Source of the DNA: Eledone cirrhosa
Taxonomy: Eukaryota
Assembly (NCBI GenBank): GCA_964016885.1
Contig: OZ024742.1
Span: 178,312,001 to 178,376,000, forward strand
DNA: 64,000 bases
Reading direction: 5' to 3'
The position numbers and the translations under genes were made by a program. Of this stretch, positions 4,013-17,865 are shown piece after piece; the first letter of the stretch is position 1, and each line of letters opens with the position of its first letter. Under the pieces are notes generated by a model. It was given only the letters and a program-made list of their open reading frames with translations, did no database searches and was not told the DNA's origin.

Positions 4013-4574
4013 ACGTGTGTGTGTGTGTGTGTGTGTGTGTGTGTGTGTGTGTGTGTGTGTGTGTGTGTGTGTGTGTGTGTGTGTGTGTGTGTGTGTGTGT
4101 GTGTGTGTGTGTGTGTGTGTGTGTGTGTGTGTGTGTGTGTGTGTGCGTGTGTGCGTGTGTGTGTGTGTGTAGGGAAGAGTTAGATTTCCAACGGCAAACC
4201 CATCCGTATCAACTTGTTTCCACATTTACACACAAGGCAAATGGGATAGAAATATATATTTCCGTGTGATGTTGACGGGTGAGAGAACGAGTACTCAAAT
4301 CCGAAGTAGAGTTTATTATGGCTACGTGATGAGTCTGGCTACTCTGGAGTTTCGCCTATATACTCACAGGATCATAAGACAAGACATGTCTGATGATTCT
4401 GTGTATACACAGGTGTGAGAAGATTTACGCACTTACATACATACACACATACATATATACATACACACACACATACATACATACATACATACATACATAC
4501 ATACATACATACATACATACATACTTACATACATGCATCATACATACATGCATCATACATACATGCATACATAC

Positions 4575-4836
4575 TATCCATTAATGGAACAGTAAAAATA
4601 TGTAAAACATTCCAAAAGATTGGCATCTAATAACTGCATATACATGTACAGATACTAAGCATATACACATGCACACATACAACTCAAAACATACACATCC
4701 ACACATACAATAACATCCATATCTACACATGCATGCAAACATGCATACATATCTACCTAGTTGATGTTGTGTAAATTCCAATGAAAGAGTCTTGTGTCTA
4801 TGTTAGAAACCGACTCTCTGTCTATTAGCAAAAATT
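4575..4836 (+). mobile_element. R4/Dong-like family B, 3' end fragment
   Basis: SINGTVKICKTFQK* plus a 3' UTR nearly identical to 12240-12497. Confidence 0.85.
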
Positions 4837-5439
4837 TGGCTGCCAACTCGTTTTCGAGTACGGCCACTACTTTATATCCATGTAGGAGAACTCCTACCGA
4901 TGCGGTAAACGAGTGTGACTTTTTAGTCCAGCCAACGACTTGAAAACTCTGGTATGAACACTACACTTGACAATTATTGACACATAGTGCTGGGCCCATG
5001 GTACCATGTGACGACAAGTGCAGAGAGATCTCCAGATATAAAACAATGCCTGTGCCGTGAAGCTTTTATAGTGAGCAAAGGCACTGCACAAAGCCAGTCC
5101 CACTCTCTTAACCAAGATGATATTTACCAAAAAGAAGAACAAGTCAACATCATTGGATACCATCAGGGTTGCAGGTGTTATATCAGAGTTTTCCTTCTCC
5201 TAGAATTCTGCCTTGACAAAGGCTAAGGGGTCATCTCTCCCGGTGATTTTGGATGGCCATTGACTCTTAAGAGCTCTTTGCCCTTTGACAGGTTTTGTTT
5301 TTAGTCCTGCAGGATGTCCAAAGTCACCCTCCTCACCAAGAAACCTTGGTGGGGTTGCCAGTTTAGTCGCCAACGACCCGACCATGAGTCAGGTTGTACT
5401 GGGATACATGTTACCAGTACCACCAACTGGTGACCTGAC
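4837..5439 (-). mobile_element. Non-autonomous RTE-like retroelement, family N1 (~600 bp)
   Basis: Minus strand: structured 5' region, remnant C-terminal C2H2 finger (consensus CSVCTRVFKSLAGLKSHTRSAH) and 3' stem-loop. Other copies end in an (ATGT)n tail: 5705-5975, 10032-10213, 16104-16617, 48513-49119. Confidence 0.75.
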
Positions 5440-5704
5440 ATACATACACACATACATACATACATACATACATACATACATACATACATACATACATACA
5501 TACATACATACATACATACATACATGGTGGCTGCCCCCTCGTTATCGAGTATGGCCATTGCACGATAAGAAAAAAAAAATAAAAAATAAAAAAAAAAGAA
5601 AAAAAATAAATAAATAAAATAAAATAAAATAATAATAATAATAATAATAAATAAATTTAAAAAAAAAAAGAAATATATATATATATATATATATTATACA
5701 TACA

Positions 5705-5975
5705 TGGTGGCTGCCAACTCGTTTTCGAGTATAGCCACTACTTTATATCCATGTAGGAGAACTCCTACCGATGCGCTGAACGAGTGTGACTTTTTAGTCC
5801 AGCCAGCGACTTGAAAACTCTGGTACAAACACTACACTTGTGACAATTATTGACACATAGTGCTGGGCCCATGGTACCATGTGACGACAAGTGCAGAGAG
5901 ATCTCCAGATATAAAGCAATGCCTGTGCCGGGAAGCTTTTATAGTGAGCAAAGGCACTGCACAAAGCCAGTCCCA
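5705..5975 (-). mobile_element. Family N1, 5'-truncated copy
   Basis: Near-identical to the 3' half of 4837-5439; flanked by CATA repeats. Confidence 0.8.
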
Positions 5976-6065
5976 TATACATACATGCATACATACATAC
6001 ATACATACATACATACATACATACATACATACATACATACATACATACATACATACATACATACA

Positions 6066-15070: not shown

Positions 15071-15142
15071 CATACATACATACATACATACATACATACA
15101 TACATACATACATACATACATACATACATACATACATACATA

Positions 15143-15977
15143 CGATATGTGTCAGAAAAGTTCCAGGACTGATGTCATAAAAGATTTATTTCAAACCCAA
15201 ACTTCACACTGAGAATTTTCTCCTTCAAAGAAATCCCCCTGGAGTATGTAACTTTAATCTTAGCTCTCTGCAGCGATCAAACTTTTTTCTTCATAATTGT
15301 ATATACTTGAAGTTTCTGGTACGGTTGGGGAAAAATCTGTCAGAGATGAGACGATGTCACGCTCACCTGTTTTTGAGTGGTGCAAGAGGTTTAAAGAAGG
15401 GCGCAAGGACGTGGAAGATGACCCCAGGAGCAGAAGGCCCTCAACAACCAGGACTGAGGTCAACGTTGAGCGCGTCAGGCAGATGATGCGTAGCGATCGT
15501 CGGCTGACTGTTCGACTGATGGCAAATTAGATGGGCATGAATCGGGACAGCGTCTGAAAGATTCTCACTGAAGATTTGGACATGCGGAAAGTCTGCGCGA
15601 AGATGGTGCCAAAACTGCTGAACGATGACCAGAAGGGTCGACGCATGCAAGTGTGCCAGGACATCCACGAGCGTCGTGAAACCGAACCAGACTTGCTAGG
15701 GACAGTCATCACCGGTGATGAGTCTTGGATCTTCGAGTACGACCGGGAGGGGACCCGTTTTGAAGACGTGGACGACATCAAAAAGGCCGTGACGGCGGAA
15801 CTGCGGAGGATCCCGGAGGAATCCTTCCAGGAGTGCATGCAAGCGTGGCAGAAAAGGATGGAAAAGTGCATTAGACTCCATGGGGATTATTTTGAAGGAG
15901 AAAACTCTTAGTGTGAAGTTTGGGTTTGTAATAAATCTTTTGAGACGTCAGTCCTTGAGCTTTTCTGACACACCTCG
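15143..15977 (+). mobile_element. Internally deleted mariner (Tc1/mariner) transposon
   Basis: TA flanks; ~95-bp imperfect TIRs (CGA..TGTGTCAGAAAAG...CTCCTTCAAA..AATCCCC); transposase motifs [39 protein letters not shown]; catalytic core deleted. Confidence 0.9.
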
Positions 15978-16103
15978 TACCTACATACACACATACATAC
16001 ACACACATACATATATACATACATACGCACGTGCATACATACATACATACATACATACATACATACATACATACATACATACATACATACATACATACAT
16101 ACA

Positions 16104-16617
16104 TGGTGGCAGCCAACTCGTTTTCGAGTACGGCCACTACTTGAAAACTCTGGTACAAACACTACACTTGTGACAATTATTGACACATAGTGCTGGGCCC
16201 ATGGTACCATGTGACGACAAGTGCAGAGAGATCTCCAGATATAAAGCAATGCCTGTGCCGTGAAGCTTTTATAGTGAGCAAAGGCACTGCACAAAGCCAG
16301 TCCCACTCTCTTAACCAAGATGATATTTACCAAAAAGAAGAACAAGTCAACATCATTGGATACCATCAGGGTTGCAGGTATTATATCAGAGTTTTCCTTC
16401 TCCTAGAATTCTGCCTTGACAAAGGCTAAGGGGTCAACTCTCTTAAGAGCTCCTTTACCCTTTTACAGGTTTTGTTTTTAGTCCTGCAGGATGTCCAAAG
16501 TCACCCTCCTCACCAAGAAACCTTGGTGGGGTTGCCAGTTTAGTCGCCAACGACCCGACCATGAGACAGGTTGTACTGGGATACATGTTACCAGTAGCAC
16601 CAACTGCTGACCTGACA
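16104..16617 (-). mobile_element. Family N1 copy with two small internal deletions
   Basis: Aligns to 4837-5439; microsatellite on both sides. Confidence 0.8.
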
Positions 16618-17865
16618 TATATATACACATATATATACACACATATATATATACACATATATATACACATATATATACACATATATATACATACATACAT
16701 ACATACATACATACATACATACATACATACATACATACATACATACATACATACATACATACATACATACATACATACATACATACATACATACATACAT
16801 ACATGCATATATACATATTTATGTAGCTGATAGGGAAATGAAATGTTATCACTATAAGAAATGTGCCAGAGACTATGTAAGTTTGTAGAGTTCACAGATG
16901 GCGCTATCTCATGTCAAATATATTTGACTTCAAGGTGATAACATCTAAAGAGTAACAGGAACAATCTGATACAAATTCATGATTGTCAATTATTTATTCT
17001 TTTGTTTAGCAACATCGTGTATTCAATGTCTTTTATATAACATATCCTGTCTCACTTATAATCACTCATTTATATCAAAGAAATATAACTAAGATATATA
17101 TATATATATATATACATACACACACATATATATATATATGTATATATTTATACATATATATATTTTTATATTATATATATATATATATATATATATATAT
17201 ATATATATATATATATATATATATATATATATATTATATATATATATATGTGTGTGTGTATATATATATAACTGCTTCTATATACAACCCTGATCTAGAT
17301 AATGGATCACCTGGAAAAATTCTCTTTTTATTCCATTCATTTTCATTTTGAAAAAGTACAAAATATCAGAGCTTTTTTTTATATAATTTAAATTCTATGA
17401 TATTATCTATGCAATTCTGATATTTATACCTTCATCTGTGATTTTTGTTTTTCTCCGTTTCAATTTTCATTTAAGTTTTTTTTTTTTTAATTGTGTGTGT
17501 TTGTGCGTGTGGTGTGTGTGTGGGGGGGGGGTGCAAGTGTATGTGTGTAAGTGCTTGCAAAATTTCAAAGATCTTTCAGTTTCAGTTACGTTAAATATAT
17601 TTTTGTTTTCTTTTTATATAATAATTATTTTATGCTGCTCTATATTTTATGATCTTTATCAATTTTAGGATCGATGGCTTTCGCGAAAGGGAATAAGCAT
17701 TTATCATCTTCCAAAGAACATGATAAATGCTTAGTTTGTTCCTTTCTTGGTAGAACTCATAAATTTTAGTTTATCAAAAAAACAAAATTGAAGGAAAGGA
17801 AAAAGTTTATATTCCATTGAACGATGATGTATGGGATAATTCTTCGTTAAAAACAAAGTGGTAAC

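Follow-up and report, generated by a model that had tools for sequence, protein, structure and literature searches.

The window considered here, a stretch of 64,000 nt from the genome of Eledone cirrhosa (contig OZ024742.1, positions 178,312,001 to 178,376,000), contains between 4434 and 16817 a nest of transposable elements embedded in (CATA)n microsatellite tracts. The nest is built around copies of two families, A and B, which are predicted from their sequences to be retrotransposons of the non-LTR type (LTR, long terminal repeat) with one open reading frame (ORF) that codes for a reverse transcriptase (RT), a CCHC motif and a restriction-like endonuclease (RLE). Across the genome, A and B sit in (CATA)n in thousands of copies and in one orientation.

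All features of the nest are given on the plus strand unless stated otherwise. At the left edge, a degenerate (CATA)n tract (4434-4574) is followed by a 3' fragment of family B (4572-4838, 92.6% identity), which is missing ~22 nt at its end and is joined to a near full-length copy of a ~600-bp non-coding repeat, here called element C (4837-5437, minus strand, inferred from its fixed end). A truncated piece of element C (5706-5975) and a member of a diverged subfamily (6067-6560, 72-79% identical to element C), both on the minus strand, lie upstream of a pure (CATA)26 tract (6559-6663), which abuts the longest copy of family A (6662-9682). This copy carries the RT, CCHC and RLE regions, is truncated at its 5' end by 1.2 kb (full-length positions 1202-4223, 99.8% identity) and has a 1-nt deletion near the end of the ORF that leads to an early stop at 9527. 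The next segment (9701-10216), to which no strand was assigned, duplicates 15779-16214 and consists of the end of a mariner element, the same degenerate tract and a piece of element C. It is followed by a 5'-truncated copy of family B with an intact 3' end and an ORF broken by stops and frameshifts (10261-12520, 94.0%), and then by a pure (CATA)24 tract (12520-12618), which separates it from a 3' fragment of an older subvariant of family A (12616-13134, full-length positions 3702-4220, 97.9%). On its 3' side, this fragment has a short degenerate tract and then ~440 bp of other, unassigned sequence (13160-13590). Further downstream are a (CATA)n tract with a degenerate and then a pure part (13597-13750), a third copy of family A, 5'-truncated and with an intact 3' end (13754-15070, full-length positions 2906-4223, 99.4%), and a pure (CATA)18 tract (15070-15143). 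The remnant of a Tc1/mariner-like DNA transposon, with inverted arms of 105 nt and a helix-turn-helix piece (15141-15979), lies within a CATA tract and has a partial duplicate at 9701-9897. The right edge is formed by a copy of element C with a 69-bp internal deletion (16105-16614, minus strand) and a tract of mixed TA/CA and then (CATA)28 (16619-16817).

The five R4-like pieces that the original prediction had placed on the plus strand were all found (three belong to A and two to B), and CATA tracts abut their variably truncated 5' ends in the nest, as it had described. It had also proposed that each family ends at its own fixed point directly before CATA. This is the case for family A, of which two copies end at position 4223 and the copy at 12616 is 3 nt shorter, and for the B copy at 10261-12520; the B fragment at 4572-4838 is without this end and is fused to element C at 4837. 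A further, older B copy outside the nest (30191-33339, 84-90% identity), in which the 5' end is preserved and two internal stretches are deleted, had been described as flanked by CATA. CATA was indeed found near both sides, with five CATA units and then (CAGA)n immediately before the 5' end, and no more than about two CATA units after the 3' end. The six pieces of element C within the nest and the Tc1/mariner-like element with its partial duplicate had been overlooked. Finally, the insertions had been thought to be piled up in one tract; nesting in CATA was confirmed, and given the short degenerate tract and the ~440 bp of other sequence behind the A fragment ending at 13134, the tracts form a chain and not a single unit.

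The 3.0-Gb genome was searched for copies of both families. Full-length A comprises 4,223 bp with a single ORF of 1,169 aa, which is open in 11 of the 19 full-length copies retrieved. Family A appears to be young, with a mean pairwise difference of 0.31% between full-length copies, a value that comes from best-scoring matches and is thus biased towards young age. Family B, of ~4.1 kb, appears to be older, and its ORF is broken in all five of the longest copies checked. The RTs of the two families are 56-57% identical, and the exact 23-nt 3' end occurs 1,971 times for A and 5,393 times for B. In the A protein, the RT was matched by Pfam (E 3.6e-25), and both the CCHC motif at 980-997 (C980-x2-C-x8-H-x4-C) and the endonuclease motifs RH1009, PD1059, E1075 and K1091..Y (named after PMC4838377) are kept across 58 relatives. 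Pfam detected no apurinic/apyrimidinic endonuclease (APE) family in this protein, which has the RLE motifs instead. The predicted structure (predicted local distance difference test, pLDDT, 88) was most similar to R2 proteins in a Foldseek search (E 1e-34). No C-x2-C is present within the first 400 residues, and hence no N-terminal zinc finger was seen. Instead, the model contains three helices at residues 22-74 with high pLDDT. The best match of this unit in the Atlas was the Rap1 Myb domain (0.85), and ten out of ten matches belonged to one clan; this is only a lead. Pfam did not match the helices, and the lone domain gave a poor model without a Myb match, for which a fold search returned generic helical matches (Z up to 6.7). 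Two public runs under other organism labels also contain low-depth contigs with ~98-99% identity to family A, and in one of these runs 86 contigs carry the A 3' end followed by CAT. Such contigs may come from close relatives, contamination or horizontal transfer.

In order to define the genomic context of these families, the 24 nt beside each junction were matched to the rotations of CATA, with a threshold of 0.5; only 0.16% of 399,040 24-mers from 20 arbitrary 10-kb stretches reached the score that most junctions reach. The best-scoring set consisted of 56 A copies (57 distinct loci, of which one without an anchored 3' end was dropped) and 39 B copies (from 42 hits, after removal of the one in the window and of two partial hits). 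At the 5' junction, the threshold was reached in 54 of the 56 A copies (in one case from just 7 visible bases) and in 30 of the 39 B copies; at the 3' junction, it was reached in 51 and 32, respectively. CATA was therefore present also on the 5' side and not confined to the 3' end, and a tract reversed relative to the element was found in none of the 95 copies, in agreement with the fixed orientation that had been predicted. In samples ordered by position, which include a few duplicated loci, CATA was found in 12 of 18 A copies and 12 of 22 B copies whose 5' junction was in view, and a 3' score of at least 0.33 in 28 of 30 and 30 of 30, respectively. The single B copy in an arbitrary sample had a long CATA tract at its 5' end. 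Directly after the exact 3' end of family A, ACATA followed in 1,489 of 1,971 cases, ACT in none, and AC[CGT] in 8, all of which were seen by eye to be CATA-like tracts with interruptions. Although TA tracts exceed CATA by far (11,728 bp, counted on both strands, vs. 256 bp), pure TA was not the usual flank. Truncated 5' ends join the tract in all four phases, with microhomology of at least 2 nt in 12 of 29 scorable junctions (18% expected; 8 junctions were unscorable).

A tract on both sides of an element could have been there before the insertion, and the flanks of single copies were examined in this respect. The two flanks of a copy share 138 variant 8-mers vs. 40±13 in shuffled pairs (maximum 90 in 2,000 shuffles). 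Because the variants are specific to the locus, the tract most likely predates the insertion. Duplications that were informative under strict rules were found in 4 of the 95 copies (13, 20, 28 and 43 nt) vs. 0.5±0.7 expected (300 shuffles, maximum 3). Both flanks could be tested in 177 copies, and none of these splits another repeat at a tract-free site; two candidates were artefacts by eye. A 3' tail made by the element, which the original prediction had named as the alternative, is not indicated either, since the run after the 3' end varies in length (pure CATA extends for 0-21 units in A and 0-30 in B) and its variants are shared with the copy's own 5' flank.

Several results weigh against this. 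The 95 copies are the best-scoring and hence the youngest ones. The A 3' end is not followed exactly by ACATA in 482 of the 1,971 cases, most of which were CATA-like variants in a sample of 30 copies. In the samples ordered by position, upstream breaks scored below 0.5 in 6 of 18 A copies and 10 of 22 B copies; by eye, some of these are internal deletions and some are in unique DNA (L003, L281, L035 and L047). Under looser rules, the number of duplications did not differ significantly from expectation (10 of 95 vs. 6.6±2.3). No empty allele was obtained, as Logan contigs of public runs break at the tracts and none spans the insertion at locus L133. No orthologous empty site was seen, and the empty paralogues among the examined loci were pseudo-empties of nest parts. 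With these points taken into account, pre-existing CATA tracts are most likely the best reading of the flanking sequences, and the genome-wide preference for CATA most likely reflects true target specificity.

It is therefore very probable that A and B insert into pre-existing (CATA)n by target-primed reverse transcription after a sequence-specific nick. The scheme is taken by analogy with R2, whose protein binds the 3' end of its own RNA, nicks the target and primes cDNA synthesis. The enzyme would nick the TATG strand, either as TATG/TATG or, should the last A of the RNA pair with the primer, one base over, and the cDNA would be primed from the 3' end of the RNA at the nick. A nick of this strand in one phase would explain both the fixed orientation and the fixed 3' phase. 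Early termination would then give variable 5' ends joined through 0-5 nt of microhomology, and a second cut ~20-28 nt further on may duplicate part of the tract. The domains, the fixed 3' end and phase, the 5' truncation, the CATA on both sides and the shared variants enter this scheme as observations; the nick in CATA, the length of the duplication and a role of the N-terminal helices are proposed.

Since each such insertion leaves a CATA target on both sides, copies would be expected to pile up in nests. Of the 177 copies, 49 have a piece of A or B past the tract on the upstream side and 43 have one on the downstream side, always on the same strand. At seven loci (L023, L027, L058, L084, L108, L113 and L118), a second truncated copy of the same family follows after a short tract, an arrangement that either local re-insertion or duplication would give. 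For the nest in the window, as distinct from the genome-wide target, the possibility that it arose mainly by local duplication instead of repeated insertion has to be considered. The segment at 9701-10216 duplicates 15779-16214, each of the two lies behind an A 3' end, and the two A copies concerned share a rare variant present in 2 of 19 others. Against this, the mariner part differs at 4 of ~197 bases, the two A copies are set apart by 5 differences over 1.3 kb (close to the family mean), and the five nest pieces have different truncation points. The mariner duplicate is thus more diverged than the A copies that precede it, which fits later separate insertions but is not proof of them, and we regard duplication as an unlikely main source of this nest.

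A different explanation would leave the choice of site to homology and not to the enzyme, with a short CATA tail on the RNA annealing to genomic TATG at nicks of low preference. A templated tail would indeed give a fixed 3' phase (the first four bases are CATA in 54 of the 56 A copies), the last A may belong to the element or to the target, and RTE elements are described as having microsatellite 3' ends (PMC9115989). However, 8 of the 56 A copies and 12 of the 39 B copies have a pure run of only 0-1 units after the 3' end, the run breaks into locus-specific variants, and the type of target follows the protein tree (see below), so that we consider this explanation improbable. That the elements create the tracts at both ends by a tail and 5' slippage, or land widely and survive only in tracts, would suit the failure to see an empty site and the 98,247 CATA4 tract ends vs. 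92 of CTTA4, which indicate that something amplifies CATA here, but is very hard to reconcile with the locus-specific variants common to both flanks, with 12 of 13 (CATA)3 matches in an arbitrary 200 kb that adjoin no start or end of A or B, with copies 0.3% apart that already carry the pattern, and with the lack of a tract-free split repeat among the 177 copies.

Insertion into existing tracts by a target-specific enzyme can also be viewed in the light of related elements. In arbitrary stretches of the same genome, two Dong-like families flanked by (TAA)n were found that are 28-38% identical to A (39-41% in the RT). They occur in tandem (L152, minus strand, 564-7181; L157, 3146-3830), and one of them is near full length with two long open frames. 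Most of the 79 metagenome loci of relatives that have a terminal repeat show TAA or TTA. Four of the closer ones (L190, L192, L193 and L195; 36-44% identity) have (CTTA)n flanks, L192 on both sides and the others on one side; the CTTA tract of L195 contains CATA units. In an IQ-TREE analysis of 33 RT rows, 7 CATA/CTTA rows were split from 16 TAA/TTA rows by a branch with 100/100 support, and a FastTree analysis of 110 rows agreed with this split. The protein of Argonauta hians, which is the closest named protein to A (64%), took its place next to A, and the TAA side held lepidopteran proteins, among them one from B. mori. Two minus-strand RT fragments of another type of long interspersed nuclear element (LINE) in the window (33483-34244 and 61992-63437), which we take to be RTE-like, served as outgroup. 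The outgroup branch was too long to resolve the root, so the tree does not show the direction of the target change. A and B are placed as relatives of TAA-flanked elements and of unnamed lepidopteran proteins, and they are likely members of the R4 clade.

The original prediction had treated A and B as a single CATA lineage. B groups with L190 and L192 (98/95), and a clade of A and B alone, a grouping named after the first tree had been seen, was rejected (approximately unbiased test, p-AU 0.0102). Since A and B are not sisters, it is likely that the CATA/CTTA preference changed more than once, or else the enzymes may read C(A/T)TA and use whatever the host offers. Neither family was found within 1.5 kb of any of 12 CTTA tracts in this genome; such tracts are a thousandfold rarer (92 vs. 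98,247 CATA4 ends), so this zero cannot decide on a C(A/T)TA reading. We tentatively suggest, as a possibility that falls somewhat short of even chances, that an undescribed and widespread R4/Dong-like branch moved from three- to four-base targets and switched repeatedly between (CATA)n and (CTTA)n, and that family A is active now and amplifies CATA by target duplication. A shared 5' signal may possibly exist as well: at the start of each of A, B, L190 and L192, a short hairpin that ends near a GG(A/C/-)(C/T)GTG-like word was recognised by eye in the first 40-50 nt.

Element C is represented by 4,529 candidates genome-wide in several subfamilies. In the window, it accounts for 4837-5437, 5526-5560, 5706-5975, 6067-6560, 10033-10216, 16105-16614 and 48514-49117, with further loci at L160-L189. 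It has one fixed end with a small stem-loop, and TA or mixed TA/CA flanks. One end is kept while the other is lost (65 vs. 5 cases), and this one-sided loss suggests that element C likely reads on the minus strand; it is antisense to A or B in 78 of 79 adjacent cases. No match was found in Rfam. A role as a non-autonomous partner of A and B was considered and rejected, as there is no similarity beyond chance words, the strand is opposite and TA or mixed TA/CA tracts are preferred. Elsewhere in the window, adjacent minisatellite arrays with units of 22, 57 and 14 bp occupy 17872-19567.

The choice of target by RLEs has been studied almost only in R2, and here close relatives differ by one base of a four-base target. 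If the interpretation is true, the members of the CATA/CTTA branch would lend themselves as a series in which to trace the residues that determine the target of an RLE, and the many intact, near-identical copies make family A directly assayable. It would also provide a target rule for abundant octopod repeats that have so far only been counted, and would explain nested clusters. As a caution, the flanks of CATA microsatellite markers may be repetitive and polymorphic in these animals. The strategy of hiding in microsatellites is itself already known.

Among known systems, HERO and Togen also have RLEs, and some of these elements are described as microsatellite-specific, such as Togen at (TG)n (PMC4640811); by their descriptions, they belong to other clades and use other units. 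R2 proteins are the best structural matches (template modelling score, TM, ~0.55-0.58 by query length), but R2 has N-terminal zinc fingers plus Myb, targets 28S ribosomal DNA and is only 17-20% identical. The ACAY target described for Waldo of the R1 clade (WaldoAg1, WaldoAg2 and WaldoFs1; PMC3812793) includes ACAT, a rotation of CATA. Waldo elements are insect APE-type elements, however, whereas the endonuclease of A and B is a C-terminal RLE, and the shared target is a convergence. In octopods, Dong-R4 LINEs are catalogued as recently active in O. vulgaris (5 families with 1,129 insertions; PMC13282606) and have also been recorded for O. bimaculoides (PMC9115989) and for other coleoids (PMC8967140). 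The Dong-R4 passages of these reports give no target site ("target" occurs 0 times in the main text of PMC13282606, and "CATA" 0 times in one supplement), and the comparison with A and B was by description and not by consensus sequence. A literature search, with Repbase, Dfam and other consensus libraries outside its scope, found no published R4/Dong family that targets CATA or CTTA. A CATA target for R4/Dong-like families, joined with CTTA relatives apart from the TAA types, thus appears to be new. The closest parallel is Dong (Bombyx mori, DongAg, DongBg and ostracod Dong), which is described as having a single ORF, an RT, a C-terminal RLE and no N-terminal zinc finger, and as inserting into microsatellites, namely (TAA)n in most insects, molluscs and cnidarians (PMC7998251, PMC3812793). 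Its N-terminus is likely Myb/SANT-like (PMC7998251), for which the three-helix match of the A protein is a lead only. A hepatitis delta virus (HDV)-like ribozyme at the 5' end is reported as a feature of the R4/Dong clade (PMC3774820); Rfam matched no ribozyme, and an HDV-like descriptor, used with no positive control, found none in A or B and none in the TAA-type 5' ends either. Unlike Dong, A and B have a four-base unit and a long separate branch, and with their CATA flanks they are not Dong in the strict sense. A and B work like Dong and differ from it by their target.

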